From Verrucomicrobiia bacterium (GTDB lineage: Bacteria; Verrucomicrobiota; Verrucomicrobiia; Limisphaerales; DASXHY01), in NCBI GenBank assembly GCA_035765675.1, contig DASTXC010000082.1, forward strand, positions 9,851 through 73,850: a stretch of DNA of 64,000 nucleotides, given 5' to 3'. Position numbers and translations under genes: made by a program. Every line of letters begins with the position of its first letter. The stretch's first letter is position 1. Positions 29,552-57,755 of this stretch are shown here, piece by piece. The notes under the pieces are model-generated. The model saw only the letters and a program-made list of their open reading frames with translations. It was not told where the DNA came from and did no database searches.

Positions 29552-32500
29552 ATGAAGAACCTTCTCAAATCAACCTGGAAAAGTTACGCGAGCCTGGCCG
29601 CATTGGCGGTCGCAGGTTTCGCCGGTCCGGCGTCAGCCGCGCTGACGGTCACCCTGGAAAATCAGTCCGGCACGGCGAACACCTGGCCGTTCACACCGGC
29701 GTGGACAGTGAATACAAACAACAGCCTGATCGCGGGGCTCGCGCCGAGCCAGGCATTGGGAGATTTCAGCAAGGAACTCGCGGGGCGAAGCGTCAATTCG
29801 CTGACGCTTAATACGAATCTGACCATCGGAATCGTTCAGCCCAGCACGTCCACGACGACGAATTATGTGACCTGCGGAAATGGCAGCGGCGCGGGATCGC
29901 TGGTGGTTTACACATTGCCGGCTTCTTCGTTTGGTTATGATCTTACGAACATTACCGTTTACGGGGGGTGGGCGAACAGTGGCCGCGACGCGCAGGCTTA
30001 CACGGTTTTATATTCCACCGTCGGAAGTCCGAATGACTTCAAGTATCTGACTTCCGTATCTTACAATCCCACCGTCCCGGCAAACACGCCGAGCTCCAAT
30101 CGTGAAATCATTCGCGACAACGCGGGTGGAGTCATCGCCGCAAATGTGGCGTCCGTGAAATTCGATTTCGATGTGCCGGCAGTTGAAAATGGCTTCGTAG
30201 GATACGCCGCAATCACGGTGGGAGGAACAGCTTCGACGGGTGCCGAAGGTCCGGGCATTTCGATTTCAACCGCCAACCAGAACAGCCCCGCGGCCTTCAC
30301 GCCGAACTGGGTTCTGGAAACGCCCAATCTGATTGCGGGGCTGGCGCCGACTGCGGCGGTCGGCAATTTCAATCAGGAAGATTCGGCTGGAACTTCCGTG
30401 CTGACCGATGGGTTGATCGCTGAATCCGGAAATCATGCCGGGTTTGCAACGGCGGGCGCCACGGGCGGTGGTTCTCTGGTTTACACGCTGCCGGACGGTG
30501 AGAACGGAATCGATGTGACCAACGTCACGCTTTACACCGGCTGGGGCAACGCGGATCGCGATGGGCAATATTTCATTCTTTCCTACGCCACTGTTTCCGC
30601 GCCCACGGCTTACATTCCGATCACAACCGTTTTTTACAATCCCGCGGGAGTGACTGGATTTTCAGCGAACCGCGTTTCCATCAGCATGAACAACGGTCTG
30701 CCGCTGGCCACGGCGGTTTCCAAATTGAAATTTGATTTCGCCGGTCCGGTCGGAGCGAACCAGTTCGATCATGGTTATTCCGGCTATTCCGAAATCGTGG
30801 TGCAAGGAACGGAATCAAGCACGCCGCCCGCGCCGCCGTCTCCGTATCTCACCGAGGACACTTTGCCTTCTTTCATTGAAACTGTGGTCGGCGACCAGGT
30901 GGTCTTCACCGCCGCGTTCAGCAATGCTCCGCCCGCGAACGTTCAATGGGAGTTCATCAATGCTGAAGGCACGCTGACGAACGATGTTCCGGGAGCCACT
31001 TCCGAAACCCTGACACTCAATAACGTGCAGTTGTCAGATGCCGGAAGTTATCGCCTCAAAGCGGTGAATGCGACCAACAATGCGGCAGCACCTTCCTACA
31101 GTCTGGCCCGAACACTTTCTGTTAAACCGACTCCGACGGCAGTGAATGGAATCATTGTAGAAACCGCCAACCATCTGGGGGCTGGCGTAAATGGCATCAG
31201 CACGAACTTCTTTCCCACCTGGTCGGTCGCTACGGACGATGACCTGATCCTGGGCGCAACGCCGATTCCCGGCGATGGCGATTTCAGTGATCCCAGCACC
31301 GGGTTCGATCCGATTCTGCTGACGGATGGCACGTCTGGTTTTCTCAATTACTGGCCGAACGTGGGCGGCAGCGAAACGCTGGTGGTCATGGGCGGCAATC
31401 GCGGCAAGTCCGTCACCTACACACTTCCTCCGTCCACTTATGGTTATGACATTACGAACATTGTGGTTTACGGCGGCTGGGGCGACAGCGGTCGCGATCA
31501 GTCGAAATACCAGATTCTGTATTCCGTCGATGGCAGCATGCCATCGCTCCCGCTCATCACGGTCGATTACAACCCGAGCATTCCGTCCGGCCTGCAATCC
31601 GCGACTCGCACAACCTTGGTTCCCACCTCGCCGGGTGGACTGGTTCGCAATGTGACGGCGCTTACATTCAACTTCGATGTGAACGTAGAGAACGGTTACG
31701 TCGGTGTTTCGGAAATCGTGGTGGGCGGACAACTCTCGCCGCCGATGCCGACGCTGGCTCAGGACATTTCACCTCTCTCTGCGGAAACGGTGACTGGAGA
31801 TCACATCACGCTGACCGCGAGTTTCAATGGCGCGGACAGTTACCAATGGCAGAAAGACGGAACGAACATTTCGGATGGTCCGGATATTTCCGGCGCCACC
31901 ACGACGACGCTGACGTTGAGCCAGCTTCAGACTTCAGACACGGCCACCAACGGCGGCTATCGGCTCGCGGGAATCAATTCCTCGGGCACGGCCTACAGCA
32001 CGCCTTGCGCGCTGGTGGTAAAACCGCTGGCGCCTGCGACCAACAACGTCGTCATTTCCGCGGCGGGTCAGATTTATCTGCATCACGCGACCTACACGCC
32101 GGACTGGATTACGGACACCAGCGCGAACAACCTCATTTATCTGGCGCCTCCGACGGCGACGAATGGCGGCTTCGGACTGGAACCATTTGCGACCACGCGT
32201 GACATCAGTGGGTTTACAGATGGGGGTTCGCTCACGCTCAGTGTCACGGACGACGGCTCTCACAAAACCACCAGCGGAAATTATCTCACCGCGGGCAATG
32301 GCACCGGCCTGGATGGAACCCGTGATGAAAATGGAAATTATCTCCACAGTGACGCCGGACATTTCGTGGTTTATCAACTGCCGGCGTCCGCAAATGGTTA
32401 CGATCTGACCAATATCACCACCTATGGCGGATGGGCGGATGCGGGACGGGATCAACAGGCTTACGTTGTCCTCTATTCCACGGTGGCGAACCCGGGCAAT

Positions 32501-33496
32501 TTCCTGCCGCTCGGAACCGTGAGTTACAATCCCGTGAATCCCGCCGACGGAACCTCGGCAACGCGTGTGACACTGACGCCGGGTTCAGGATCGATGGCGC
32601 AGAACGTCGGGGCGGTGATGTTTGATTTCCGCAGTCCGGGAACGGAAAACGGCTTCGGGGGTTATGCCGAAATCACGATCAACGGCGTTCCTTCCGCCAC
32701 TCCAGAAACACCGCAGCCGGTGGTCACTGCCGAGAATCAGACCAACACGTTCACGTGGACGGTTGAAAGTCCGAACCTGATTGCGAATCGTTTGCCGGAC
32801 AGTTTCGGTCCGGGTCTCTTCACGAACGAAGGTTGTAACATTACCAACCTGACCGACGGCATCATTGGTTTCGGCGCGGGATTCGGAACGAGCCTCGGCG
32901 CGGGCGGCGCTGCGGTTCCATGGATCATCTTCAATTCTCCGAACGGTTGGGATCTGACGAACATCGTGGTTTACTCGCTCTGGCACGATTACGGTCGTGA
33001 CGGACAGTTCTACACCGTCAGCTATTCCACCTTGTCTGATCCTTCCGCGTTCGTGCCGTTGAGCACGGTTTACTTCAACCCGGATGTGCCGCAGGACGGA
33101 ACCGACAGCGGCAATCGCGTGGAGATCTCGCCCATCGTCGGTCAAACCAAACTGGCGAGCAATGTCGCGGCGGTGAAGTTTGATTTCACCATTCAAGGAA
33201 ATCAGGACTTCGCCTGGTCGGGCTATTCAGAAATCGTGTTGCAGGGCGTGAATCTGAATGCGGCCACGCCACCGCTGGTCGAAGGCGTTCGCGTGACCGG
33301 TGGAAATCTGGTGGTCACCGGCACCGGTTCGGCGAACTCGGACTACACGATTCTCACGACGACCAATCTGGCAAAGCCCTTGGCTGAGTGGACGATCAGC
33401 ACCACGGGTGTGATCGATGGCGCCGGCAGCTTCTCGAACGCGATTCCGGTTGACCCGGCCACGCCTGCGCGATTCTTCCGCGTGCGAACTCCTTGA
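29552..33496 (+). CDS. secreted non-catalytic repeat protein (protein A): 5 copies of the unassigned module, 2 Ig-like domains, C-terminal FFRV domain
   Basis: The ATG at 29552 gives the signal peptide [30 protein letters not shown]. The track ORF starts at a GTG at 29495. I recognised no catalytic motif. See the module features and findings. Confidence 0.85.
29642..30226 (+). repeat. unassigned beta-sandwich-like module, copy A1 (subtype Ia)
   Basis: [109 protein letters not shown]. Confidence 0.8.
30257..30808 (+). repeat. unassigned module, copy A2 (subtype II)
   Basis: [102 protein letters not shown]. Confidence 0.8.
31151..31729 (+). repeat. unassigned module, copy A3 (subtype Ib)
   Basis: [113 protein letters not shown]. 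Confidence 0.8.
32042..32686 (+). repeat. unassigned module, copy A4 (subtype Ia with a longer insert)
   Basis: [114 protein letters not shown]. Confidence 0.8.
32720..33247 (+). repeat. unassigned module, copy A5 (subtype II)
   Basis: [98 protein letters not shown]. Confidence 0.75.
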
Positions 33497-33626
33497 AGAA
33501 ATCGGGACGGGTTGTGATTGCCCCGGAACGGTTCGGGTTCCCGGGCAAATCCTCCAGCGAGTGAAATTTGAATCATCAAAACAGCTTGAGCGTCGCGATG
33601 TTTTTCGCGGGCGCGGATCGACTGAA

Positions 33627-34505
33627 ATGAACAAGAGAAATGCTTCCACGGGATTTCGAAAGCACCGGGTTCGCCGTGCTTTCACACTGATTGAATTGCT
33701 GGTCGTGATTGCGATCATTGCGATTCTGGCCGCGATGCTTCTGCCTGCATTATCCAAAGCCAAGCGGAAGGCTCTGGGCACTGCCTGCTCAAACAACATG
33801 AAGCAGCTCACGCTCGCGCTTCATCTTTATGCGCTTGATTACAAGGACAACATCGCGCCCAATCGCGGACAATCGTTGGATTCGTGGGTTCCCGGCGGCA
33901 CGTTCGGGTACGATGTCCGCGGCGGTTCCGGCGTGACCAACCTTGATAACATCCGCTCCGCTTTGCTTTTTCCCTATAACCAATCCCTGGGAATTTATCG
34001 GTGTCCGGGAGACAAAGATTCCGTGATTGATCCAACTCTCGGCAGTCTGGGCCAGCGCGTCAGGACTTACTCGATGAATGGAATGATGGGTGACAATCGA
34101 GGTTTCGGCGGCGGGAATGATCCCGTGCATGCGGACATTCCCGAACATCGCACGCTGAGTTCGGTTCAAAATCCGGGGCCGTCGGACGCGTCTCTGTTCG
34201 TAGATGAGCAAGGCAGTTCAAGCACGGTGGAATCGCAGACCAGCATCGATGACGGGTATTACGCCGTGAACTTCCAGGATCGCGGCCAGACCTGGCGGAA
34301 TGTGCCGGCGAGCCGTCACGGCAACTACGGCCAGTTTTCATTTGCGGATGGTCACGTCGGCAAAATGAAATGGGTGGAACCGAAAACCCAATTCCTCAAA
34401 GGATTGAAAGCAAGTTCTGGAAGGTTCAATGATCAGGATCTGCATCAAATCTGGAACTCGACTTATCCCGAAGGTGGTTATCCCGGCAAGCCGGGACCGT
34501 GGTGA
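33627..34505 (+). CDS. pseudopilin-like protein: prepilin-type N-terminal cleavage/methylation domain plus H-X9-DG motif
   Basis: The ATG at 33627 gives [49 protein letters not shown], a class III signal of the G/A-FTLIEL type. The C-terminal [16 protein letters not shown] is an exact H-X9-DG. The family is massively expanded in Planctomycetes and Verrucomicrobia. Confidence 0.9.
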
Positions 34506-34684
34506 GCCATGGTGAGGGCTGCACCCGTTTTTCACGCTGCAATTTTTTTTGCGAACGCAGTGCGACGCATCGGATTCATTCAATCGCCATTCCTGGATCG
34601 ATTGGCAGAACGCGAATCGTTTAATGCACAATCGATCCAAGTGACCCTCTGATGACTGCCGGACGGCGGTGTAAGAAGTAAAAC

Positions 34685-37600
34685 ATGAAGCAACGCCGAA
34701 TGGTCGAATGCAAAATTACGGGATATCTCGTCGCGTGTCTGGCCTTCGCTGGTTCCGCTTCGGCGGCGTTGTTGATCAACACCACGAATCAAACGGGCAA
34801 TCTTACTTTCCATCCGGATTGGAGTCTCGCATCGAACAGCCTGATCGCTGGGTTGGCACCGAGCAGTTCTTTCGGAAATTTCAGTCTGGAAGCACCGGGG
34901 CGCAATGCTCGGTCACTAACCTCGGGTGGCGATCTTTCAATTGAACAGATCCACGGCACCTCCGGCACGACGGCCAGCACCAATTACGTTACCTGCGGGA
35001 ACGGCAGTGGCGCGGGATCAGTGCTGGTTTATACACTGCCGGATTCAGCGAATGGTTACGATCTCACCAACATTACGGTTTACAGCGGCTGGCAGGACAA
35101 TGGCCGCGATGCGCAATCGTGGACTGTTTCGTATTCCACTGCCGCCAATCCGGAATTTTTTGTTCCGCTCACAACGGTTGCTTACAATCCTCCGGTTCCA
35201 AGCGGCGTTGCCACGGCCAATCGCGTAACACTGATTCATTCCGCAGGCGGACCTTTCGCGACCAACGTGGTTGCCTTGAAATTCGATTTCGCCGCGGCTT
35301 CCGTGGAAAACGGCTACACGGGTTATGGCGCAATCACGGTTCAGGGAATGCCTTCCACCAATGTCGTCATGCCGCTGCCCGTCATGGTTTCCGCCCAAAG
35401 CCAATCCGGCGGCGGATCATTCATTCCCGATTGGATTATTGAAACGGACAGTCTCGTCGCGGACCGGATGCCGAGTTTCACCGGTTCGGGCAATTTCGAA
35501 TTCGAACCGGAAACCGGCGGCTTGCCGATGTTGACGGACGGCGTGTTCGGACTCACCGGAACCACTGCGTCATTTGCCACCTGTGGCAACGATGCGGGAC
35601 GGTCGCTGGCGTATTATCTCGATGGCGCAACGCTGACAAACATTGTGGTTTACAGCGGCTGGGTGAATCCGGATCGCGACGGCCAGTTCTACAACGTTTA
35701 TTATTCCACGCTCTCCGCGCCGAACTCGTTCCTTCCGCTGGCCAGCGTGAACTACAATCCCGTCGCTTCCGGAAACTCGGCGGCTCGCGTTTCCATTGCC
35801 ACCGCGAACGGTACGCCGCTCGCGACAAATGTGGCGTTCGTGAAATTCGATTTCACACCACAGAACCATTCGGTGGATCACGGCTATTCGGGTTACGCGG
35901 AGATCATTCTGCAAGGGTTCGGCGGCGGCTCCGCATCGCAGCCTCCGATCAAAATGCAAACGGATTTTCCCGCGAGCACTTCCGACAGCGCCGATGCCGT
36001 GCTGGTGTTCAATGAGATCATGTATCATCCCGCCGCCAATGAAGCCGGAATGGAATGGATCGAGTTGTACAATCAGCTCGCGGTCGATATCGATGTTTCG
36101 AACTGGCGGATTGCCGGCGACACGGAGTTTACGTTTCCTGCGGGGACCCGAATTGCCGGACGCAGCTTTGTCGTTGTCGCGCGAGATCCGGCGCAGCTTC
36201 AGGCAGCAACGGGTTTGAGCTCGAATGTATTCGGACCTTTCGTCAGTCCGTTGGACAACAAAGGCGGCACTCTCCAATTATTCAACAATGCCGGACGATT
36301 GATGGACGCGGTCGAGTTCGGAACCGAAGGTGAATGGCCGGTTACACCCGATGGCGCGGGGCCTTCGCTGGCCAAGCTGGATCGGGATTGGGGATCCGCC
36401 GCCGCAGCGAACTGGCGCGCGAGTGTTCAAAACGGAGGCACGCCGGGATTTGAAAATTTTCCCACCGCGCCAACGCCGGCGACATTGATTTTCAATGAAG
36501 TTTCCGGTGCGACCAATTCGATGTGGGTTGAACTCAGAAATCGCGGAACGAATTCAATTTCGTTGAGCGATTGCATTCTTCACCACGATGGTGAAACCAA
36601 CACCGATTACATTTTTCCTCCCAATGTCAGTCTCGACGCCGGTGCGTTTTTTGTGCTGTCGAATGATGTGCTCGGTTTTCAGTCTCCGGCTTCGGGTGAA
36701 AAGCTGTTTCTGTTTGGCCCCGATCATTCAACGGCCTACGACGGTTTCGTGTTGAAAAAAACTCCTCGTGCGCGCGCGACGGATGGAACAGAACGCTGGT
36801 TCGTTCCTTCGCCAACCACGCCCGGCACAACGAACCGTTTCGCATTTCAAACCGATATCGTGATCAACGAAATCATGTGTCATCACCAGGCGTTCGCGCC
36901 GGCGGACACCAACGCGATTCCGATTGAGAATCCGGAAGAATGGATTGAACTCTACAATCGCGGGACGAATGTCATCGACCTCACCGGATGGGAAATTGCG
37001 GGCGGAATCGACTTCGCGTTTCCCGTGGGCACAACGCTCGCGCCGGACGCTTACCTGGTGATTGCGAACGACGCGGCCAATTTATCGGCGCTTTATCCAA
37101 GCGCGAATGTGATCGGAAATTTCAACGGACGACTCGGTGGCGATGATCAAATCACGTTAAAGGATGCTTCAGGCAATCCGGCGGATGAAGTGCATTATTA
37201 CACATCCGGACATTGGCCGGAATTTGCCGGCGGCGGAGGTTCCAGTCTGGAATTGCGTGATCCGAACGCGGACAACTCAAAAGCCGAAGCCTGGGCCGCG
37301 AGTGATGAATCCGGAAAATCCTCCTGGCAAACTTACACGTATCAAATGATTGCGCAGCCGAGCGCCACTCCCGCGCCGGACAATCAATGGCGCGATTTCG
37401 TGCTCGGCCTTTTAGGCGATGGCGAATGCTGGGTGGACGATATTCGTGTGATGCAATCGCCCGGTCAGAATCCCACCGATTTGATTTCCAATGGCGATTT
37501 CGAAAATGGACTTAACGGCTGGCGCGTGTTGGGCAATCACGGTCGCAGTCGTGTGGAATCCGATCCCAATAATCCCGGCAATTATGTTCTGCATGTCGTC

Positions 37601-40483: not shown

Positions 40484-40519
40484 ACACACGGGCAATGAAT
40501 TTCTAATGCGACAAACTCA

Positions 40520-44053: not shown

Positions 44054-44063
44054 GTTGAAACCG

Positions 44064-47471: not shown

Positions 47472-49534
47472 TCACCGCTCACATATCGGGTTCTGATTCC
47501 ATTGAGCCACAGGCTCAACGCTACACTTGTAATGTCGAGGCTGGGTCTCGACCTCAATCATCTGCCGCAAAACTGTTTTGTCGTGCGCGCTTTGTGCTTT
47601 TTCTGCTCATCGCCCTTGTGATGCCGCGAATCTCGGCGGCCACGACCGCGATGATTTTCTGCAATGGGGATATGGGCAGCGTGAATGGTTTGACGGCGTC
47701 GCAGATCAATGGGTTGAGAGCTTCGGGAATGACAACGATAGTGGTGTTCACAATGGGCGTCGCGGCCAACGGCGATTTCACGTACGGCGGGGTCATTTGC
47801 AGCAATGGTGTTTATGTCGGGCCTTCAAACTGGGGCGCGCTGCTCAATCAATGTCGCGTCAAACCCTCGAGCGTCACGCGCATTGAAATGTGCATTGGCG
47901 CATGGGGTGATTCGAGCTGGACGCATATCAAGGATCGGATCGCGGCGGACGGAACGAACTCCAACACCGTTCTCTACAAAAATCTGCTGGCGTTGAAAAA
48001 CGCGCTGGGAATTGACGCGATCTGCAACGACGACGAATCCGCGTATCACTCCGCGTCCGCCATTCAGTTCGGCAAAATGTGCGGAGCGGTGGGCTTGAAA
48101 CTGACGCTGTGTCCTTACACCCGGCCGACCTACTGGCAGGCGGTCAAAGCGGGCCTGGGCGACATCTGCGACGCGGTTTATCTGCAATGTTACGACGGCG
48201 GCGCGGGGAACAATCCAGCCACCTGGAACACTTACTTCGGCGGTTTGAAAGTCATTCCCGGTTATTGGGATTGGGAACGGGACACAACTTTTCTGACGAA
48301 AATGCAGGCCGGGAAAAACGCCGGTTGCACGGGCGGATTTTATTGGCCGTCCTGCACGGGCTGCAATCCGCCGGCGGATGCCAACGGCATGAAGCAGTAC
48401 GCCGATTGGATCCTCAAGACATTCAATCCTACGGTGACGCCGGCAACGGCTTCAGAGGTTGTGGGTGGCGAGGCGTCTTTCACTGTGGATTTCAGCGGTG
48501 AGGACTGGAGTTATCAATGGAAGGTGGTTCGTGGCGGAATGACGAATGATATTCCTGGCGCGACCACGAACCGGGTGACGCTGGCAAATCTGCAACTGAC
48601 CAACACCGCATCGTATTTTGCGGTGCTTTCGAATGCCACTGGAGTTTCCGTGAGCAGCGCGGGTTCGCTCACCGTTTCCAGTCTGCCGGCCGCGGTGAAC
48701 GGCGTGATTGCTTCCTTTGCAGCGCAAACCGGTTTGGGAAGTGTCGCGACGAATTTTGTTCCCACCTGGAACGTGCGCCCGGGCAGTTTGATCGCAGGCC
48801 AACTGCCGAACACGGTTGGCTCTGGAAATTTTGGTTTTTATGGCGCCAGCGGTGCGCTTTCGGTGCTGACCGATAACAGCTTCGGTTGGTTGAATTTCTG
48901 GCCGAACGTGGGCGGCAGTCCCAGTGAAGTTACCTGCGGCACGGTATCCGGCGGCGCGGGGCAATTCGTGACTTATCACCTCGGCGGTTCGGACAACGGT
49001 TATACTCTGACGAACATTATGGTTTACGGCGGCTGGGGCGATGCGGGCCGGGATCAACAGGCGTTCACGATTTATTATTCCACGGTTACATCGCCCGCGA
49101 CATTCCTGCCGTTGAGAAGTGTGAACTTCAATCCGGCGAATCCGCTCGCCGTGCAATCAGCCACGCGAACGACGCTGATGCGATCCAATGGCGCGCTGGC
49201 CACGAATGTCGTCGCGGTGAAATTCGATTTCACGACGCCGCCCGCGGAAAACGGCTATTGCGGTTATTCGGAAATTGCAATCTACGGTTTTCCAACGCTT
49301 CCGCTCGCATTGCCGACAATGCTGAGCGTAAATTTCCAAAGCGGCGACGATTTCATTGTGAACGTGGAAGGCCTGATTGCCGGACGCGGTTATCTCCTGC
49401 AAAGCCGCACCAATCTTTCTTCCGGCGACTGGATCACAGAATGGGAATTTGTTGCCGCGCAGCCCACGATGTCATTGACCAATTCCCTTAATCATTCCGG
49501 AGAGAAATTTTATCGCATCATCGGATTCCAATGA
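47468..49534 (+). CDS. secreted protein E: Cys-rich TIM-barrel-like head, Ig-like domain, unassigned module, C-terminal FYRI domain
   Basis: The ATG at 47468 overlaps the upstream stop (ATGA). The hydrophobic signal-like segment FVLFLLIALVMPRISAATTA begins only ~40 aa in, so the true start is uncertain. The head (about 47641-48430) shows an alternating beta/alpha pattern with 13 Cys and a strand ending GIDAICNDDES. Confidence 0.75.
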   Translation: MITAHISGSDSIEPQAQRYTCNVEAGSRPQSSAAKLFCRARFVLFLLIALVMPRISAATTAMIFCNGDMGSVNGLTASQINGLRASGMTTIVVFTMGVAANGDFTYGGVICSNGVYVGPSNWGALLNQCRVKPSSVTRIEMCIGAWGDSSWTHIKDRIAADGTNSNTVLYKNLLALKNALGIDAICNDDESAYHSASAIQFGKMCGAVGLKLTLCPYTRPTYWQAVKAGLGDICDAVYLQCYDGGAGNNPATWNTYFGGLKVIPGYWDWERDTTFLTKMQAGKNAGCTGGFYWPSCTGCNPPADANGMKQYADWILKTFNPTVTPATASEVVGGEASFTVDFSGEDWSYQWKVVRGGMTNDIPGATTNRVTLANLQLTNTASYFAVLSNATGVSVSSAGSLTVSSLPAAVNGVIASFAAQTGLGSVATNFVPTWNVRPGSLIAGQLPNTVGSGNFGFYGASGALSVLTDNSFGWLNFWPNVGGSPSEVTCGTVSGGAGQFVTYHLGGSDNGYTLTNIMVYGGWGDAGRDQQAFTIYYSTVTSPATFLPLRSVNFNPANPLAVQSATRTTLMRSNGALATNVVAVKFDFTTPPAENGYCGYSEIAIYGFPTLPLALPTMLSVNFQSGDDFIVNVEGLIAGRGYLLQSRTNLSSGDWITEWEFVAAQPTMSLTNSLNHSGEKFYRIIGFQ
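48704..49288 (+). repeat. unassigned module, copy E (subtype Ib)
   Basis: [128 protein letters not shown]. Confidence 0.8.
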
Positions 49535-52500
49535 AACAACACACGATCACGAACTCCTTCGGTTATTCAATTGTCATCGGCAAAGTGGAAAGAACGTCAC
49601 TTTGCGGAATGATAACAGGGACTCATGTAATTCGCCCTTCCGCAGTGCGAGTGTTTGCGTTGTTTGTCGGATTTATTTTAACCGCGACGCAGTTGTCCGC
49701 TGATGTGATTCCGGTGACGGACAGCAATGTGTTGAATGGATTGACCCGCAATAATTGGGTTCTGCAAAACGACTTCATCAGCACGAGCGTCGGTGGAGCA
49801 TCGCTTCAAGTGGCCTTTGACGGAACAGATCAGGTCACGCTGCAACTCGACGACGCGCACCTGTCCGGAATCACAGCGTCTCGTTGTCCAATCATCGCGT
49901 GGTCCGTGAACGGCGGCCCGATTCAAACGCATCAACTCACGACGGCGGAAAGTTCGATTGCATTGTGCTCGGATGTTCCGAATCCGGAGATCGATCTGTT
50001 CGTGAAGGGAATGTCGCCGTTTGAAAATCGTTATTCAGGTGACGTGCCGCCGAACTCGGTCAAGATCACCGGGTTTATTGTAGATTCCGGAGGTTCAACT
50101 CGCGAGATCGAGCTGCCGCAAAAAGTCTGGTTGAACATCGGTGATTCAATCATGTCCGGCGACGCCGCGGCGTATGCGACGGGGCAGGGACGTCCGGCTG
50201 ATGACAGTTGGGCAGCTTCGGATGATGCGCGAGCGAGTTACGGTTATCTGCTGGCGAAACACTTTGGTTATCGTGAAGCGCGGCTGGCGTTTGGCGGATA
50301 CGATTGGGGCGGCGGTCTCGCCGGCGTGCCTTCGCTCACCACGTTGATTGATCAGAAAACTTCGACGATCAGCCGCTTGAAAAATGGCTTGTTGGATCCG
50401 GTTCCTGAGGTGGTGTTGATCAATCTCGGTGAAAATGGTGCGCCATCTTCAACCGACGTGACGCAGGCGCTGACGCGATTGCGCAGCCGAGTCAATCCTC
50501 GAACAAAGATTATCGTGATGATTCCCGTCGCGGGAACGGCGCGCGTTCAGATCACGCAGGCGTTCAGCAGTTATACGAATGCCACGCCGGATGCGAATGC
50601 GTTTCTCGTCGATTTGGGATCATTGAACTTTTCAACAGCCGACGGACAACATCCCACGGCTGAAGGGCATCAGACGATTTATCAGGCCGCGCTGCCGGTG
50701 CTGGAATCGATTGTCAATCCCGCGCCGTTCCGGATTTGTGCGATGGGCGATTCCATCACCGCGGGTTTCACGGACAATCCCCAATGGACGGTTCCGTTTG
50801 AGTTTGGTTATCGCAGCGGACTTTACACCCGGCTCACCAACAGCGGCATGAGTTTTCAATTCGTCGGCAGCTCACCGCAACCGTGGGATGGAATCGATGG
50901 AACCGTGACCAACACGCCGTTGGTTGATCTGCGCGAAAGTGATCAGGATCATCACGAAGGCTATACCGGCAAGAACACCGCGTTCTTCCTGGCCAACGTG
51001 GCGAACTGGATTGGCGTGGATCGTCCGCACATTCTTCTGCTGCAAATCGGGATCAATGACATTGGCAAAGGCAGCACCGGCGAGCCGACGGGCGCGGAAC
51101 TGAACCTCAGCAATATCATCGCGACGGTCGTGAGCAACAGTCCGCAGACCCATGTGATTGTCGCGCAGATCACGCCTTACAGCAGCTACACCGAGGCGAT
51201 TGTTCGTTACAACAATTACATTAAAGACACGCTTGTTCCTTACTTCGCCGGGCTCGGAAAACGAGTCACGACCGTGAATCAATACACGAACCTGTGCTTT
51301 CCCGGAACAACCACGATCGATGCGTCGCTGTTTGCGAACGGCATTAATCATCCCAACAACATCGCCTACGATCGCATGGCGCAAACGTGGTTTGAAGGAA
51401 TCCAGGCGCTGAATCTCCCGCCTTCGCCGCCAACGCAACTTCCAATCGTAGTCGCGAACACGCAGCCCGCCACAGCGAAGGTGTTTGTCGGTGAGGGCAT
51501 TTCTTTCAATGCCGCTTTCGAAAGCGATCAGCCGATGGTTTATCAATGGCACAGGATTCAAGGCGGAGTGACGAATGCCATTCCGGGCGCGACGAATTCA
51601 ATTCTGACGCTGATGAATCTGCAAACGACGGATAACGGTTCGTACTTTTTGCAGGCGTCGAATGCATTGGGCATTGCGTCCAGCGCGTCGAGTTCGTTGA
51701 CGGTTTCCGATCTTCCAGCGGCGGCGGATAATATCATCACCGCCATCGCGGAGCAGACCGGCCGCGGCATTGGCGTGTTCACGCCGGGATGGATTTTCAC
51801 CACGAACCACAGCCTTATCGCGGGCAAAGCGCCGAGCAGTGCGATTGGAAATTTCAGTCTCGAAGCGCCAGGAAGAAATGTGAATCTGCTGACCTCCGAT
51901 GACGATGGCGCGTTGTCCGTGATTGTCAGCACTTCGGGCGCGACGAGCAGCACGAATTACGTCACGTGTGGAAACGGCAGCGGAGCGGGTTCATCCGTGA
52001 CCTACACGCTGACGGGTTCAACCTACGGATACGATCTGACCAACGTCACGGTGTCTGGCGGCTGGGCGGACAACGGCCGCGATCAGCAGGCTTATACGGT
52101 TTTTTATTCCACGGTGATGGACCCGCAGAATTTCCTTCCGCTGACGACGGTGAACTTCAATCCGGAAGTCGGCAGCGGTCGCCAATCAGCAACACGCGTT
52201 GCAATTCTGCCTGCGACCGGAACGCTGGCGACGAATGTGGCCATGGTGAAATTCGATTTCAGCAGTCCGGCGTCGGAACATGGTTATTGCGGATACAACA
52301 AAATCATCATTGAAGGTTCTGCCGGTGCGCCGGTGACGATTGTGACGAATCCGCCGCTGCCGGTGATGATTGAATCTTCGCAATTTGGCCCGAGTTCCAG
52401 CGCATTTGATGGAGCGATTGCGTCGAACCTGATTCGCGCTGGTCAAAGCTCACTGGCCGGCGTCGTCGTCAGTCACGGTCCTTCCATTTCATCTTTATTC

Positions 52501-53115
52501 ACCACGGCCGGTTTGAATGATGGCAGCGCGGCCAACAACAACAATCGAACGTATTACGGCAATTCCGATCCATCAGGCGGAAATCTGCCGGTGACGATCA
52601 CTTTCAATCTGAACACCAACAGTGCGAGCGGATACGACATCACGCGCATTCAGTCGATCACAGGTTGGTCGGATTCGAATCTGGCGAATCTGCGTTATGA
52701 GCTTCTGTTGTCGTTCAAAGGCGGACCGTTTGTCAGTTATGGAGAATTCAGCAGCGCAACCAATTCGACGGCGTTCAACAATGGAAACAACGCAATCCTG
52801 CAAACTTTGACCAGCGACACGGGTTCGATCGCGCGGGGCGTTACTGCCGTGCGATTTATTTTCTCGAATCCTGGCGGTTCGCAAGGCGGTTCGGGAGGCA
52901 CGTTGATTCGTGAGCTTCAGGTTTTCGGAACGCCGGTGGTCGGGTTGTCTTTTCAAAAGGCGGGCGACAATCTTCTACAATTAAGCTGGCCGCAGGGGAT
53001 TCTGCTGGAGGCGACGAATATTACTGGCCCGTGGATCACCAATGCCAGCGCGACTTCGCCTTACACGAACGACCTTGATGCGCCGGAGAAATATTTCCGC
53101 GTGCAGATTCAGTGA
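49531..53115 (+). CDS. secreted protein F: beta-sandwich + SGNH esterase, second SGNH domain, Ig-like domain, two module copies, C-terminal YFRV domain
   Basis: The ATG at 49531 overlaps the upstream stop (ATGA). An internal ATG at 49609 gives a better-placed signal peptide (MITGTHVIRPSAVRVFALFVGFILTATQLSA). SGNH-1 at ~50125-50709 (NIGDSIMSGD..LINLGENG..DGQHPTAEGH). SGNH-2 at ~50728-51408 (CAMGDSITAGF..LLLQIGINDIG..INHPNNIAYDRMA). Confidence 0.85.
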   Translation: MKQHTITNSFGYSIVIGKVERTSLCGMITGTHVIRPSAVRVFALFVGFILTATQLSADVIPVTDSNVLNGLTRNNWVLQNDFISTSVGGASLQVAFDGTDQVTLQLDDAHLSGITASRCPIIAWSVNGGPIQTHQLTTAESSIALCSDVPNPEIDLFVKGMSPFENRYSGDVPPNSVKITGFIVDSGGSTREIELPQKVWLNIGDSIMSGDAAAYATGQGRPADDSWAASDDARASYGYLLAKHFGYREARLAFGGYDWGGGLAGVPSLTTLIDQKTSTISRLKNGLLDPVPEVVLINLGENGAPSSTDVTQALTRLRSRVNPRTKIIVMIPVAGTARVQITQAFSSYTNATPDANAFLVDLGSLNFSTADGQHPTAEGHQTIYQAALPVLESIVNPAPFRICAMGDSITAGFTDNPQWTVPFEFGYRSGLYTRLTNSGMSFQFVGSSPQPWDGIDGTVTNTPLVDLRESDQDHHEGYTGKNTAFFLANVANWIGVDRPHILLLQIGINDIGKGSTGEPTGAELNLSNIIATVVSNSPQTHVIVAQITPYSSYTEAIVRYNNYIKDTLVPYFAGLGKRVTTVNQYTNLCFPGTTTIDASLFANGINHPNNIAYDRMAQTWFEGIQALNLPPSPPTQLPIVVANTQPATAKVFVGEGISFNAAFESDQPMVYQWHRIQGGVTNAIPGATNSILTLMNLQTTDNGSYFLQASNALGIASSASSSLTVSDLPAAADNIITAIAEQTGRGIGVFTPGWIFTTNHSLIAGKAPSSAIGNFSLEAPGRNVNLLTSDDDGALSVIVSTSGATSSTNYVTCGNGSGAGSSVTYTLTGSTYGYDLTNVTVSGGWADNGRDQQAYTVFYSTVMDPQNFLPLTTVNFNPEVGSGRQSATRVAILPATGTLATNVAMVKFDFSSPASEHGYCGYNKIIIEGSAGAPVTIVTNPPLPVMIESSQFGPSSSAFDGAIASNLIRAGQSSLAGVVVSHGPSISSLFTTAGLNDGSAANNNNRTYYGNSDPSGGNLPVTITFNLNTNSASGYDITRIQSITGWSDSNLANLRYELLLSFKGGPFVSYGEFSSATNSTAFNNGNNAILQTLTSDTGSIARGVTAVRFIFSNPGGSQGGSGGTLIRELQVFGTPVVGLSFQKAGDNLLQLSWPQGILLEATNITGPWITNASATSPYTNDLDAPEKYFRVQIQ
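51730..52317 (+). repeat. unassigned module, copy F1 (subtype Ia)
   Basis: [121 protein letters not shown]. Confidence 0.8.
52363..52929 (+). repeat. divergent discoidin-like module, copy F2 (subtype III)
   Basis: ..LNDGSAANNNNRTYYG..LPVTITFNLNTNSASGYDITRIQSITGWSDSNLANLRYELLLSFKGGPFVSYGEF..GVTAVRFIFSNPGG..GTLIRELQVFG. The strand order matches the other modules, and the ending is typical of F5/8 type C domains. Confidence 0.6.
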
Positions 53116-53139
53116 TTCCTCAGAGCTCGATTATTTCCG

Positions 53140-56100
53140 ATGAAAAATAAAAAAATCCTGTTTGCAGTGTGTTTGTGTCTGTCGGTTGGAATCGGCGTGT
53201 CGTGGTTGCGCCAATCGAAAAGTCGATCAGCCGAACATTCGGCTGCTGTGACTGCGGGGACGAATGCGACGGCGATCATGACCAACGCATTTGCAAATAC
53301 CGCGCCCGTTCCGTCCGCGATTGGCAACACGCAAGGAGTTGTTTCGTCCGAGATGAATCCCTCAATCAATCCGTATGCCGCCGGACTGCGTGAGCCAGGA
53401 AAAGCCAAGCGCGAATGGGATGAGCGTTTCATCGAGAGTTTTCGATCTTCGAATCCCGGTAATGCCGTGCGATTTGAACTGACGGGCGGCGTGGTCGCGA
53501 AAGGCGTTGTGAAAATTATTCAGCGCGACGGCGCGAACGTGAGCTTTGTGTCCGGTGAATTGAGCGAGCCAGAAATCGGCAAATTCTTTTTTCTGACTCC
53601 ACCGGCCGGCGGCAAAGCGGGCAAGGCCGTTGGCGTTGTGGAGTTCCCCGGCAGTCAAATTGCCTATCGCGTGGAACCGACGGGCTCAGGCGGCGAACCG
53701 GAATTGTGGGAGCGGCGGATGGATGAAGTTCTTTGCCTGAGCATGCCGGAAATCAGTGATCCGGTTATGGCCGCCGCCGCGACGAATGAGACCTTGAACA
53801 TTCCACCGCTGCGACCCGATCTCGTGCCCGATTACGTTCCGAGTTACAACAGCAACATTGTTTCGCTTCAGAGTTATCCCGGCTCCTCCGCAGTGCTGCT
53901 GCTGGATTTCTTTGGCGGTTATACCGTTCATTGGGGCGGCGTTGAATACGCGCGTCCGCCGGTAAGCAATGAAACGATCAAGGATATCTGGAAACGCGTC
54001 GCCGAAGACTACATGCCGTTCAACATCAACGTGACCACGGACATCAAGGTTTACCAGGCAGCGCCTGCCGCGAGCCGGCAACGTTGCTGTTACACGACCA
54101 CGCCGGTGACGGCAGCGGGTGTCGCGTATTTTGGCTCGTGGAACTGGGGCAACGATGCGGTGTGCTGGTCGGTTTATTATGTTGGAAAAAATGCGGCGGA
54201 AGTTGGCTCGCATGAAGTTGGACACACGTTGGGATTATCGCACGACGGACGCACAACGCCGGTGGAGGAATATTTTGGCGGGCACGGAAGCGGTGACACA
54301 GGCTGGGCGCCGATCATGGGCGTGGGATATTATCAACCCGTCGCGCAATGGAGCAAAGGTGAATACGCTTCGGCCAATCAACTTCAGGACGATCTCAACA
54401 TCATCACGAGCAACAACAACAATGTGGGTTATCGCGCTGATGACACGGGCAACACACTCGCGACGGCGCGTTATCTCGAAATCTATTCCAACAACACGGC
54501 GTCCGCGGAAGGCGTGATCGAACGCACGGCTGATACGGATGCGTTTCAATTCACGACCAGCGGCGGAATCGTGACGCTCACGGCCAAGCCGGTTGGCGAC
54601 TGGGCTGATCTCGCAGTTTCGGCTACGCTGGCAAACGCGGCGGATACCGTCATTGCGAGCAACAATCCGCAGTCCACTCTTTCGGCGAGCATCACCACCA
54701 ATCTCGCGGCCGGTTCCTACACGTTTCGGGTCACGGGCGCTGGACGGAACAATCCCTTGAACAACGGTTTTTCCAGCTACGCGAGCCTCGGATATTATTC
54801 CGTCACCGGCAGTGTAGCAGGCGCGCGATTGCCGACGCGGCTCAGCGTTGTCGAGCACGCGCCGAACAATTCTGAGGTTGGGGCCGTCCCAGCCATCAAT
54901 CCCAACAGCAGCCCGCTGCTCTATACGATCACGTCCGGCAATTCAGGCGGGACGTTTTCCGTGGACGACTCCGGCGTGGTGCGCGTGGCGGACAACACTT
55001 TGCTGGATTATTCGCGGCTGGCGACCAACACGATGTATGCGGTGCAATTCGAAGTGTTCATGAACATTACCAACGTGAACAATCCGGCATTGACTGAGCT
55101 GAATCGCCGCGTGGTGATTGCGGTGGAAAAATTCTATCCGGTCGTGCCGATGTTGTTAACCGCCACGGCAGGCACAGGTTTGCGAATCAATTTAAACTGG
55201 ATGGGAGCGCAGGACGCGATCAGTTACAACGTGAAACGTTCTACCCTTCACAATGGGCCGTACACGGTTATCGCGAGTCCGACCGACACGAGTTACAGCG
55301 ACCTCGGACTCACCGATGGCGTGAGATATTACTACGTCGTTTCAGCGGTGAACACGAACGGCGAAAGCGCGGATTCGTCGGAAGCGAACGCGCTGGCGCA
55401 ATCTGTGGCAGGTTATGGATTTGAAACGCCGAGCATTGGCTCCGGCAACCATCAGTACAATCCGTCCGGCGGATTCTGGACATTTAATGGCGCGTCCGGA
55501 AATGGTTCGGGAATCGTGGCGAACGGCAGCGCGTTTTCAAATCCGAATGCGCCCGAAGGAAGTCAGGCTGCGTTCGTGCAAAGCTATGGAACCATTTCCC
55601 AGACGCTCTCGGGTTTCACTCCGGGTGTGAACTACACCATTACGTATTCTGCCGCGCAACGGTCCGGTCAGGATCAACACGGCGGCGAATCGTGGAATGT
55701 GGTCGTTGATGGAAACGTGATCAAAAGCAATAACCCCGGTCCGACAAGTTACACGACTTACAATGCGACATTCATCGCCACTGCAACAACACATGCTCTG
55801 GCGTTTGTTGGAACCGATCTGGCCGGCGGTGACAACACGGTTTTCATCGACAATGTGCGCTTCGATCCGCCTTTGCAGCCGGCGCCGGCGACCGTTGCTT
55901 TGACTCAGCCGGCGAACGGAGCCGGTTTCGCGGAGACTGCGCCGATTTATTTGATGGCGACGGTCACGACGAACGGAAATCAAATCGACGGAGTGGAGTT
56001 TTACCTGGATAACATCACGCGTCTGGGCGAAATCACCACCGCACCTTTCAAGTTCGCAATGGCGAATGTGACTCCCGGAAAACACACCGTCTTCGCTCGC

Positions 56101-57750
56101 GTGCTGTTCAACAATGGAAGCGTCGCAGATTCAGCGCCGGTTGACTTTTTCATCATCAGTCCGAACCCAAATCTCAGTTTTGAACTGCCGGCAATTGGAT
56201 CGGGAAATCATGTTTATGGACCTGAAGGGGGAACGTGGATTTTCAACAGCAACAGCGGCGACAATGGTTCGGGAATCGTTGCGAATGGCAGCGCGTTTGG
56301 AAATCCAAACGCGCCGAACGGCACGCAGACGGCGTTTGTTCAAAGCCATGGAAAAATCACTCAGACACTGACCGGCTTTGCGCCCGGCACGAATTACACC
56401 CTCACGTATTCCGCGGCGCAGCGCGGGGGAGGGAATCAACACGGTGGCGAATCCTGGAATGTGATGGTTGATGACGCGGTGATTAAATCCAACACTCCGG
56501 GTCCGACGAGTTACACCACTTACACCGCCAACTTCACCGCGTCGCTGGCGACTCACACTTTGTCGTTTGTCGGAACCGATCTCGCCGGTGGCGACAACAC
56601 GGTGTTCATCGACAACGTGCAGTTCAATCCACCGCTGACGCCGATTCTGATTCCCGAGTTGCGAACGAACACGCTGCCGGTGACGGCGGCGGAGGTTGTC
56701 GGCGGGGAAGTGAAATTTATGGCCGCTTTCAACAGCGCCAATCCCATTCAATATCAATGGCAGAAAATCGTGGACGGTGTTGCGACCGATATCGTGGACG
56801 CGACGAATACCGTTTTGACGCTGACAGATTTGCAACTCAGCGATGCGGGATTGTATCGGCTCCAGGCTTCCAACGCGTTGGGTATTGCCGTGAGTGCTGC
56901 AAGTTCGCTTACAGTTTCCGGCGTGCCAGCGCCAGTTAACAATGTGATCACTTCGTTTGCCGCACAGACGGGGCTTGGAAGCGTGGCTACCAACTTCACT
57001 CCGACCTGGACTCTGGGCTCGGGAAGTTTGATTCAGGGGAAAACGCCGAGCCAGGTGGGCGGCGGCAATTTCACTCGAAGCACCGCTTTATTGACTGATG
57101 GCAGTTTTGGTTGGTTTACCTATTGGCCAAATGTCGGGCTGAGTTCGACTGAAGTGACCTGCGGCACGAGTGCCGGTCAATCAGTCACTTACGCACTCGG
57201 CAATTCCAGCAGCGGCTACAGTATTTCCAACATTGTGATTTATGGAGGCTGGGGTGATGCCGGACGCGATCAACAGGCGTTCACGGTTTCGTATTCCACG
57301 ATCAGTGCGCCGGATCTTTTCGTCCCGCTTGCGAATGTAAATTTCAATCCGGAAAATCCCAGGGCTGTTCAGTCGGCGACGCGTTCAAGTTTGAGATCAT
57401 CGACTGGCGCTCCGCTCGCCACGAATGTTGCGAAGTTGAAATTTGATTTCACCACGCCCGAACCGGAGAATGGCTACTGTGGTTACTCGGAAATTTCCGT
57501 TTTAGGAACGCCGACGCCGATGATTGCGACGACTCCGACCCATATCGCCGTGCAATTCAACAAAGACGTTTTGAATCTAAGCTGGCCCAGCGATCACATC
57601 GGCTGGCGATTGCAGGTGCAGACGAATGATTGGAATTCGGGACTTGGAACAAACTGGGTGGATGTCATCGGATCGACGGCGACGAATCAGATGAATGTTC
57701 CAATCAACACCGTGAACGGCAGCGTCTTCTTCCGATTGGTCTATCCATAA
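53140..57750 (+). CDS. secreted protein G: metzincin-type zinc metalloprotease, PPC-like, cadherin-like, FN3, 2x DUF642/CBM-like, Ig-like domains, unassigned module, C-terminal FFRL domain
   Basis: Signal MKNKKILFAVCLCLSVGIGVSWL. Zinc site HEVGHTLGLSHDG (54211-54243) with the downstream Met-turn candidate WAPIMGVGY. DTDAFQFTTSGGIVTLTAKP (pre-peptidase C-terminal-like). FN3 (ISYNVKRSTLHNGPYTVIA..GVRYYYVVSAVNTNGES). Two ~153-aa repeats at 55411-55869 and 56170-56631. Confidence 0.85.
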   Translation: MKNKKILFAVCLCLSVGIGVSWLRQSKSRSAEHSAAVTAGTNATAIMTNAFANTAPVPSAIGNTQGVVSSEMNPSINPYAAGLREPGKAKREWDERFIESFRSSNPGNAVRFELTGGVVAKGVVKIIQRDGANVSFVSGELSEPEIGKFFFLTPPAGGKAGKAVGVVEFPGSQIAYRVEPTGSGGEPELWERRMDEVLCLSMPEISDPVMAAAATNETLNIPPLRPDLVPDYVPSYNSNIVSLQSYPGSSAVLLLDFFGGYTVHWGGVEYARPPVSNETIKDIWKRVAEDYMPFNINVTTDIKVYQAAPAASRQRCCYTTTPVTAAGVAYFGSWNWGNDAVCWSVYYVGKNAAEVGSHEVGHTLGLSHDGRTTPVEEYFGGHGSGDTGWAPIMGVGYYQPVAQWSKGEYASANQLQDDLNIITSNNNNVGYRADDTGNTLATARYLEIYSNNTASAEGVIERTADTDAFQFTTSGGIVTLTAKPVGDWADLAVSATLANAADTVIASNNPQSTLSASITTNLAAGSYTFRVTGAGRNNPLNNGFSSYASLGYYSVTGSVAGARLPTRLSVVEHAPNNSEVGAVPAINPNSSPLLYTITSGNSGGTFSVDDSGVVRVADNTLLDYSRLATNTMYAVQFEVFMNITNVNNPALTELNRRVVIAVEKFYPVVPMLLTATAGTGLRINLNWMGAQDAISYNVKRSTLHNGPYTVIASPTDTSYSDLGLTDGVRYYYVVSAVNTNGESADSSEANALAQSVAGYGFETPSIGSGNHQYNPSGGFWTFNGASGNGSGIVANGSAFSNPNAPEGSQAAFVQSYGTISQTLSGFTPGVNYTITYSAAQRSGQDQHGGESWNVVVDGNVIKSNNPGPTSYTTYNATFIATATTHALAFVGTDLAGGDNTVFIDNVRFDPPLQPAPATVALTQPANGAGFAETAPIYLMATVTTNGNQIDGVEFYLDNITRLGEITTAPFKFAMANVTPGKHTVFARVLFNNGSVADSAPVDFFIISPNPNLSFELPAIGSGNHVYGPEGGTWIFNSNSGDNGSGIVANGSAFGNPNAPNGTQTAFVQSHGKITQTLTGFAPGTNYTLTYSAAQRGGGNQHGGESWNVMVDDAVIKSNTPGPTSYTTYTANFTASLATHTLSFVGTDLAGGDNTVFIDNVQFNPPLTPILIPELRTNTLPVTAAEVVGGEVKFMAAFNSANPIQYQWQKIVDGVATDIVDATNTVLTLTDLQLSDAGLYRLQASNALGIAVSAASSLTVSGVPAPVNNVITSFAAQTGLGSVATNFTPTWTLGSGSLIQGKTPSQVGGGNFTRSTALLTDGSFGWFTYWPNVGLSSTEVTCGTSAGQSVTYALGNSSSGYSISNIVIYGGWGDAGRDQQAFTVSYSTISAPDLFVPLANVNFNPENPRAVQSATRSSLRSSTGAPLATNVAKLKFDFTTPEPENGYCGYSEISVLGTPTPMIATTPTHIAVQFNKDVLNLSWPSDHIGWRLQVQTNDWNSGLGTNWVDVIGSTATNQMNVPINTVNGSVFFRLVYP
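56941..57507 (+). repeat. unassigned module, copy G (subtype Ib)
   Basis: [129 protein letters not shown]. Confidence 0.8.
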
Positions 57751-57755
57751 ATTTT

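Follow-up and report, generated by a model that had tools for sequence, protein, structure and literature searches.

The DNA considered here is a 64,000-nucleotide stretch from a Verrucomicrobiia bacterium (contig DASTXC010000082.1 of assembly GCA_035765675.1, positions 9,851 to 73,850 of the forward strand), referred to at its full length as the window and numbered from its own first letter. It encodes a cluster of large, putatively secreted proteins that share a repeated domain, here called the module, of which 11 copies of 170-220 residues are distributed over five co-directional open reading frames (ORFs A, B, E, F, and G) spanning 29630-57513 on the forward strand (Table 1). The locus opens with a GH78 alpha-L-rhamnosidase and a divergent two-component system, followed by ORF A, a pilin-like N_methyl/DUF1559 gene, ORF B, two GH106 alpha-L-rhamnosidases, ORF E, ORF F, ORF G, a six-hairpin protein, and a third GH106 gene, giving four rhamnosidases (one GH78 and three GH106) in 40 kb. 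From ORF A on, between 29.5 kb and 64 kb, all genes point in the forward direction and their junctions are short or overlapping. Signal-peptide-like N-termini were found by direct reading in all five module proteins, and several of these proteins are composite. ORF F combines two SGNH (GDSL) esterase domains, an immunoglobulin-like (Ig-like) domain, and two modules, and ORF G is a metzincin with the motif HEVGHTLGLSH, an fn3 domain, two DUF642 domains, a Big_7 domain, an Ig-like domain, and one module.

Table 1. Modules, associated domains, and neighboring genes in the window
Feature	Coordinates	Strand	Evidence and remarks
CotH and lamin-tail-domain (LTD) protein	1762-5688	-	
GH78 alpha-L-rhamnosidase	23885..26836	+	Pfam
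Copy 1 (A1, type Ia)	29630..30232	+	Directly after ORF A signal peptide; jackhmmer E 1e-74
Copy 2 (A2, type II)	30248..30814	+	Tandem partner of copy 1; jackhmmer E 2e-60
Ig-like domain (Ig_3 / I-set), ORF A, before copy 3	30866..31084	+	Pfam Ig_3 E 1e-13; I-set at residues 458-530
Copy 3 (A3, type Ib)	31136..31732	+	jackhmmer E 2e-74
Second Ig-like domain, ORF A, before copy 4	31781..32008	+	Pfam Ig_2, residues 763-838
Copy 4 (A4, type Ia, 15-aa insertion)	32033..32692	+	jackhmmer E 8e-58
Copy 5 (A5, type II)	32714..33253	+	jackhmmer E 5e-58
C-terminal domain, ORF A	33248-33493	+	Local HMM; ends FFRVRTP
Pilin-like gene (N_methyl + DUF1559), between ORFs A and B	33417..34505	+	Pfam; synteny
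ORF B (2 modules, 4 LTD, CBM_4_9, CotH)	34685-40483	+	Pfam
Copy 6 (B1, type Ia)	34754..35353	+	Directly after ORF B signal peptide; jackhmmer E 3e-75
Copy 7 (B2, type II)	35375..35923	+	jackhmmer E 7e-65
C-terminal domain, ORF B	40241-40480	+	Local HMM
GH106 alpha-L-rhamnosidase, first	40520-44053	+	Pfam
GH106 alpha-L-rhamnosidase, second	44055-47471	+	Pfam
N-terminal TIM-barrel (GH18-like) domain, ORF E	47645..48430	+	AlphaFold2 pLDDT 94; Foldseek
Copy 8 (E, type Ib; the modeled copy)	48689..49294	+	jackhmmer E 2e-97; AlphaFold2 + Foldseek
C-terminal domain, ORF E	49292-49531	+	Local HMM
Ig-like domain, ORF F, before copy 9	51457-51705	+	
Copy 9 (F1, type Ia)	51718..52323	+	After two GDSL/SGNH esterase domains and Ig-like domain; jackhmmer E 2e-84
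Copy 10 (F2, type III; most divergent, ending IRELQVFG)	52345..52938	+	phmmer, jackhmmer, deep HMM
C-terminal domain, ORF F	52912-53112	+	Local HMM
Ig-like domain, ORF G, before copy 11	56692-56913	+	
Copy 11 (G, type Ib)	56929..57513	+	jackhmmer E 8e-85
C-terminal domain, ORF G	57514-57747	+	Local HMM
Six-hairpin protein	57630-60341	+	Pfam
GH106 alpha-L-rhamnosidase, third	60365-63937	+	Pfam

The copies are recovered by several sequence searches. With the copy of ORF E (copy 8) as query against all six-frame ORFs of the window, a single pass of phmmer returned ten copies at domain E values of 1e-23 to 1e-134 and the most divergent, F2 (copy 10), at 1e-3, while iterated jackhmmer converged on all 11, ten of them at 1e-58 to 1e-97 and F2 at 2e-32. 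A deep hidden Markov model (HMM) of 340 family domains, run unfiltered with --max, found the same 11 across the 64 kb, with F2 at E 5e-18 and the next-best match at E > 1. A first-pass annotation of this DNA had listed 11 copies at 29642-57507, a count and a position that these searches bear out, and the copies align significantly with one another, F2 included. The limits in Table 1 are jackhmmer envelopes; for F2, whose jackhmmer envelope is 52423-52935, those of the deep HMM are entered. The CotH protein at 1762-5688 was considered as the site of one more, hidden copy, and this was ruled out, the region behind its Ig-like domain being an LTD-like segment.

The sequence signature first written for the module is a fair consensus and not a universal rule, as TCG occurs in 6 of the 11 copies, exact LTDG in 5, and F2 is without GRD. 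Similarly, the four subtypes proposed at the same time (Ia, Ib, II, and III) are seen as motif and indel signatures, although overall identity separates them only loosely. The arrangement of the subtypes follows a regular pattern: each type II or III copy stands directly behind a type Ia copy, always, and the remaining Ia and Ib copies are preceded by a signal peptide or an Ig-like domain.

The duplications that gave rise to this arrangement are old. Pairwise protein identity between window copies is 33-67% (20-30% for F2) and nucleotide identity 37-66%. Identical degenerate amino acids are encoded by the same codon at 47%, against 39% expected from the codon usage of the ORFs themselves, and synonymous sites between copies are near saturation. 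No long DNA repeats were found among the copies, the repeat search giving only short 60-80% matches over conserved motifs; on these grounds a recent repeat or an assembly artefact is rejected. For 9 of the 11 copies, the positionally equivalent copy in orthologous proteins of other genomes is clearly closer than the best paralogue within the window. Copy 1 is 74% identical to the first copy of a five-copy protein (P0121) and at most 54% identical to any window paralogue; copies 2 and 3 pair with copies 2 and 3 of the same protein at 55% and 55%, and copies 6 and 7 pair with a second protein (P0142) at 87% and 82%, the best in-window values being 43-58%. The exceptions are copy 11, for which the external and in-window values are level (64.6% and 64.0%), and copy 4, for which they are nearly so (48% and 45%). 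Because external positional counterparts are closer and synonymous sites are near saturation, the duplications must have occurred before these genomes diverged, and the copies have been retained ever since, as held by the earlier proposal of old duplicates under purifying selection.

For the window copies themselves, annotation by sequence is blank. A Pfam scan of the five full proteins and of the 11 isolated copies placed no family on the module even at E <= 10, an NCBIfam scan of the proteins placed nothing on it, and sequence searches of the PDB with profiles of 11 or 49 sequences, or with F2 alone, gave only chance matches at E > 0.2. Literature searches found no paper describing the domain. 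The AlphaFold2 model of copy 8, computed with the 11 copies as alignment, is all-beta with nine to ten strands (pLDDT 87.2, pTM 0.88). Against the PDB, Foldseek ranks CBM32 modules highest for this model, led by 4lpl (E 2.6e-4) and followed by 4a41, 2j7m, 2j1e, 4lks, and 2v72, among which 4lpl, 4a41, 2j1e, 4lks, and 2v72 hold bound galactose, GalNAc or LacNAc. The galactose-binding domain of the Micromonospora viridifaciens sialidase ranks next, and then the discoidin domains of SUN, APC10, allantoicase, and muskelin; Foldseek probability is 1.00 for all of these. Target-normalized TM-scores are 0.5-0.67 among the best-superposing matches. The galactose-binding-domain-like fold is common to these structures, and the module is placed in it.

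Homology to the F5_F8_type_C family (PF00754) is reached through intermediate sequences. The window profile, run as an HMM search through all of 1.84 billion representatives, brought in distant members of the family, and some of these are recognized by Pfam. One of them (P0255; E 1.3e-37 to the 11-copy window profile) scores 60.7 bits on PF00754, whose cut-off is 28.2, in three segments, each matching one of its three module copies in position, and a single one of these copies aligns to positions 5-126 of the 127 in the Pfam model at E 2.8e-5. A second (P0251) scores 37.8 bits against the same cut-off. A relative of the first at 60% identity (P0259) carries a precomputed PF00754 annotation and matches the 11-copy profile at E 4.2e-14 with Z = 1.84e9. 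Alignment of the window copies with the P0255/P0259 subfamily by hhalign gave a probability of 99.3% and an E value of 2e-20 over 147 columns. The best PDB match of that bridging subfamily is YeCBM32 (2jd9), at a marginal E of 0.036, with LTDG lined up with ADGD, YS.DG with YSNDG, and the last strands with each other. Because distant members are recognized by PF00754, the module belongs to the F5/8 type C superfamily as one of its diverged branches and is no unrelated new fold, which lowers its novelty. The divergence from other F5/8 type C (discoidin, CBM32-like) domains is strong, and the module has in addition a variable insert and, at its N-terminal end, a conserved extension of ~50 residues. 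Fold class and this homology are counted as established, and so are the existence and age of the repeat, the taxonomic range of the module, and the domains to which it is fused. The discoidin-like, CBM32-like beta-sandwich suggested in the first-pass annotation is thus borne out by the model and its top matches; the accompanying statement that the module has no named family stands for the window copies, with their null results in Pfam, NCBIfam, and PDB sequences, and needs qualifying for the family at large, which through its distant members is not isolated.

Bacterial members of PF00754 make up CAZy family CBM32. The module and these domains have in common the beta-sandwich fold class, the habit of being appended to glycoside hydrolases, and the order of their elements, with LTDG corresponding to ADG[DN], a strand ending in W, YST..P..F corresponding to YS.DG..W, VKFDF to RYVRI, and a last strand ..EI.V.G. 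The module differs in being ~200 aa long as against 130-150, owing to the N-terminal extension and the insert, which lies before TCG; its hallmark loop, GW-D-GRD-Q, is no CBM32 motif, and its fixed heterotypic tandems (Ia-II, Ia-III), the Ig-like domain usually found in front of it, and its near restriction to Verrucomicrobiota are likewise unlike CBM32. A second relative is the NedA-like galactose-binding domain of the Micromonospora sialidase (PF22633, F5_F8_type_C_2), structures of which (1eut, 2ber, 2bzd) rank high in the Foldseek search. PF22633 is matched by distant members of the family, at a sub-threshold or supporting level, and by none of the window copies, and the host enzymes differ.

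Bacterial F5/8 type C domains on glycoside hydrolases are established as glycan binders. The module is probably a non-catalytic glycan-binding module that holds secreted enzymes, and the multivalent product of ORF A (protein A), on a polymeric substrate. Its core would be an eight-stranded beta-sandwich preceded by a segment of ~50 residues bearing the motifs FxPxW, SLIAGxxP, and GNF, and Verrucomicrobiota, mainly of subdivision 3 (Pedosphaerales / Limisphaerales), either append it to secreted enzymes or string it into enzyme-free multi-module proteins, of which ORF A with its five copies is an example. In CBM32, the sugar pocket is built from loops at a single end of the sandwich, with a DG motif contributing to a structural calcium site. 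The conserved loops LTDG, GW-D-GRD-Q, NP, and ENG of the module may similarly lie at one sandwich end and form a sugar site that is probably metal-stabilized; LTDG, conserved at 88-95%, is the motif that aligns with the ADGD of YeCBM32 through the marginal match of the bridging subfamily. Binding would anchor the enzymes and protein A on a polysaccharide or glycoconjugate, and this anchoring could raise the local concentration of substrate for the GH78 and GH106 rhamnosidases, the SGNH esterases, the GH18-like barrel, and the metalloprotease. The most likely class of ligand would be a rhamnose-bearing, possibly acetylated glycan, although a rhamnose-bearing ligand can be proposed only tentatively. 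That the module binds sugar, where on it the sugar would bind, and that the ligand is a rhamnoglycan are inferences.

Over the 340 aligned domains conservation outside the core is highest in predicted loops, with W116 at 99%, R121 at 96%, Q124 at 93%, D118 at 82%, L60/T61/G63 at 88-95%, G46/F48 at 90-93%, and P149 at 89%. This pattern bears on the idea that the module is mainly a structural spacer or stalk, without a specific ligand, that extends catalytic domains from the cell surface. Tandem beta-sandwich and Ig-like repeats are indeed common stalk elements, and copies of the module alternate with Ig-like domains; however, conservation of W116, R121, Q124, and LTDG to this degree over ~1,400 clusters fits a functional site better, and near-saturated synonymous divergence indicates copies long kept apart, so that a purely structural role appears very improbable. 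Membrane or lipid binding, by which the module would keep its host proteins at the outer membrane in the manner of the C2 discoidin domains of factors V and VIII or of lactadherin, is barely plausible. Through PF00754 the module does share a superfamily with eukaryotic membrane-binding discoidin domains, but its top structural matches are bacterial CBM32 modules and not C2 domains. An hhalign comparison of the family profile with human factor VIII C2 gave no signal, a result that is uninformative as the single-sequence target is too weak, and a jackhmmer search from factor VIII C2 over the retrieved loci, made to obtain a bacterial F5/8 type C alignment, returned no matches.

Glycan binding is further suggested by the company that the module keeps in ORF E. 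The 260-aa N-terminal domain of this protein matches no Pfam family, and its modeled TIM barrel has as best Foldseek matches GH18-type chitinases (3ebv) and a xylanase-inhibitor protein. Among its 109 homologues an NDDE motif with an invariant glutamate is found. The barrel is presumed to be the catalytic partner of copy 8, and it is a candidate for a new glycoside hydrolase family. In homologues from other lineages the module is replaced by ricin-B (PF14200/PF00652) or by F5_F8_type_C (PF00754 + PF22633) domains; since the barrel homologues carry these domains at that place, the module fills a slot held elsewhere by genuine lectin domains. As to the limits of the gene, the mechanical start of ORF E lies 247 nt inside the preceding GH106 gene (47225-47620 region), and translation probably begins with the ATG at 47468 or the one at 47621, immediately ahead of the signal-peptide-like stretch.

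Partners of the module outside the window are varied. Among 62 multidomain representatives the commonest are Ig_3 (30), HpiC1-like (10), PATR (8), GH78 (7), and DUF642 (7) domains; there are also single cases of GH43, GH76, GxGYxYP, SASA, GDSL, and beta-helix domains, and Laminin_G_3 occurs as well. Two of these, DUF642 (PF04862), present in ORF G as well, and HpiC1-like (PF22825), are themselves lectin-like sandwiches; they are, however, separate Pfam families that are recognized directly, and the module copies match neither. The most frequent enzymatic association is with GH78, which lies within 8 kb of a module in 37 of 60 related loci (39 assemblies) and shares an ORF with it in 25 of the 60 loci and 21 of the 39 assemblies, these being loci picked by type Ia/Ib peptide patterns and counted without a genome-wide background rate. 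In the fusions the module either follows Bac_rhamnosid_C directly or precedes the enzyme on its N-terminal side; one such protein (P0196) has GH78 at residues 46-1057 and the module at 1095-1301. The GH78-fused modules are of the same subtypes as copies 9 and 8 of the window, with 59-63% identity to them.

The association with GH78 invites comparison with CBM67, the calcium-dependent L-rhamnose-binding module of the Streptomyces avermitilis GH78 enzyme SaRha78A. Both are non-catalytic beta-sandwiches found on GH78 enzymes, and the module may be a functional analogue of CBM67, not a member of it. Module profiles matched no PDB chain and SaRha78A is not in the top 50 Foldseek matches, and the module, unlike CBM67, is located outside the GH78 body. 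The frequency of GH78 fusion points to a possible new carbohydrate-binding-module family for rhamnose-containing polysaccharides or glycoproteins; to our knowledge few binding modules are known for rhamnose-containing substrates. For a CAZy specialist the GH78 link would be a worthwhile lead and no surprise.

In at least 12 loci (L029, L033, L035, L040, L045, L047, L050, L051, L054, and L058 among them) the association takes the form of a trio, in which a five-module protein and a GH78-module fusion flank a DUF1559 pilin-like protein. The window has the first two members of the trio, ORF A and the pilin-like gene, and then ORF B. From this synteny one may suspect that the expanded DUF1559 family is functionally tied to glycan processing. 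A bolder version of the glycan-binding proposal, and a rather unlikely one, is that the module constitutes a new carbohydrate-binding-module family for alpha-L-rhamnose glycans and that module protein, DUF1559 pilin, and GH78 fusion together form a Verrucomicrobial glycan-capture device, in which a multivalent lectin scaffold and a pseudopilin would present the polymer to the rhamnosidase. If true, such a device would be a functional counterpart of the Bacteroidetes SusD/SGBP and would give the hugely expanded DUF1559 pilin-like family its first assigned role.

A second conserved element of these proteins is a C-terminal domain of 65-80 aa ending in [FY][FY]R[LVI]xxP, which is common to all five module proteins and to the CotH/LTD protein on the reverse strand. 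It has no match in a Pfam scan. A local HMM built from the six window C-termini matched 295 ORFs or proteins of the retrieved set, 250 of them at the extreme C-terminus, and one distant relative gives a weak Por_Secre_tail match at the same position. The domain may serve Verrucomicrobiota as a signal for secretion, sorting or anchoring, and the usual order in host proteins is Ig-like domain, module, C-terminal domain. The window has two large proteins with CotH and LTD domains, at 1762-5688 (-) and 34685-40483 (+); the C-terminal domain is present in both and the module in the second only.

A number of observations weigh against the placement of the module near CBM32 and against its proposed role in sugar binding. 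The window copies give no PF00754 match at all, and hence none at its gathering threshold of 28.2 bits, and they lack the significant similarity to a characterized CBM32 on which membership of that CAZy family depends, profiles of 11 and 49 sequences finding no PDB chain. The TM-scores of the Foldseek matches, from 0.45 (query-normalized) to 0.61 (target-normalized), are low, as are the identities of 10-17%, and the conserved loops are assigned to a single binding face from secondary-structure positions alone. The manner in which the loci were picked also tempers the GH78 counts, and the module is found in addition on proteins without an obvious glycan role, including CotH/LTD, metzincin, PATR-repeat, RCC1, and cadherin-like proteins. 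Finally, ORF A has five modules and Ig-like domains and no enzyme domain, and the same fold is used for protein-protein recognition by SUN, APC10, and muskelin.

These last two points are also among those that could speak for a protein-protein or cell-surface attachment domain, comparable to cohesin/dockerin or SLH domains, that would assemble complexes or tether proteins to the envelope instead of binding substrate. Protein A is scaffold-like in its composition, the module is present in every secreted protein of the locus in the fixed order noted above, and proteins resembling A are syntenic with the pilin-like DUF1559 protein in the trio loci. On the other hand, the separate C-terminal domain is a better candidate for sorting or anchoring and occurs also without the module, as in the CotH protein; the closest relatives of the module in both structure and sequence are sugar-binding CBM32 modules; its place on the ORF E barrel is held in other lineages by ricin-B or F5/8 type C lectin domains; and the direct GH78 fusions of 21 assemblies are what one typically sees with carbohydrate-binding modules. 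An attachment function is therefore regarded as improbable, and substrate binding remains the favored role.

The family is sizeable and phylogenetically narrow. Of the 1.84 billion representatives, 1,404 proteins match the window profile at E <= 1e-3, and 720 do so at <= 1e-10; the family thus amounts to ~1,400 clusters at 50% identity. With four Ia/Ib copies as query, a scan in which each GTDB species was represented by one genome gave 60 loci in 39 assemblies, nearly all Verrucomicrobiota; because of this query the 60 loci are biased towards types Ia and Ib. They belong to subdivision 3, Pedosphaera, and Limisphaerales, together with Haloferula and Luteolibacter, and to one Pontiellaceae genome, and the module is almost confined to Verrucomicrobiota. 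Six loci (L010, L011, L029, L056, L057, and L060) place typical Verrucomicrobial module proteins on contigs labeled as Bifidobacterium, Binatia, Sulfotelmatobacter, Dongiaceae or Tepidisphaeraceae metagenome-assembled genomes, which probably reflects contaminated bins and not a genuinely wider distribution of the domain. The names given to these proteins at source are 'hypothetical protein' or 'Immunoglobulin subtype' only. In ~1,400 clusters, mostly from soil, peat, and freshwater Verrucomicrobiota, the domain is thus blank in current Pfam, NCBIfam, and PDB-based annotation, and a discoidin/CBM32-like label provides a usable annotation for giant proteins now called hypothetical. The analysis also helps to define a conserved rhamnosidase-centered locus in an abundant and poorly cultured group of bacteria. 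The family is unannotated and large, but it belongs to a well-known fold and superfamily and its presumed role is equally familiar; it represents neither a new fold nor a new kind of mechanism.

Several further features of the locus concern the host proteins and their neighbors. Each of the GH106 paralogues has a C-terminal domain resembling Glyco_hydro_2_N2, and the C-terminal parts of the adjacent first two are ~70% identical at the DNA level. ORF F, which starts at 49531, overlaps the stop of ORF E by 4 nt, an overlap that suggests translational coupling. Within ORF G two segments of 300 nt each (55501-55800 and 56263-56562, forward strand) are 72% identical and encode the two DUF642 domains; this repeat is an internal duplication separate from the module.

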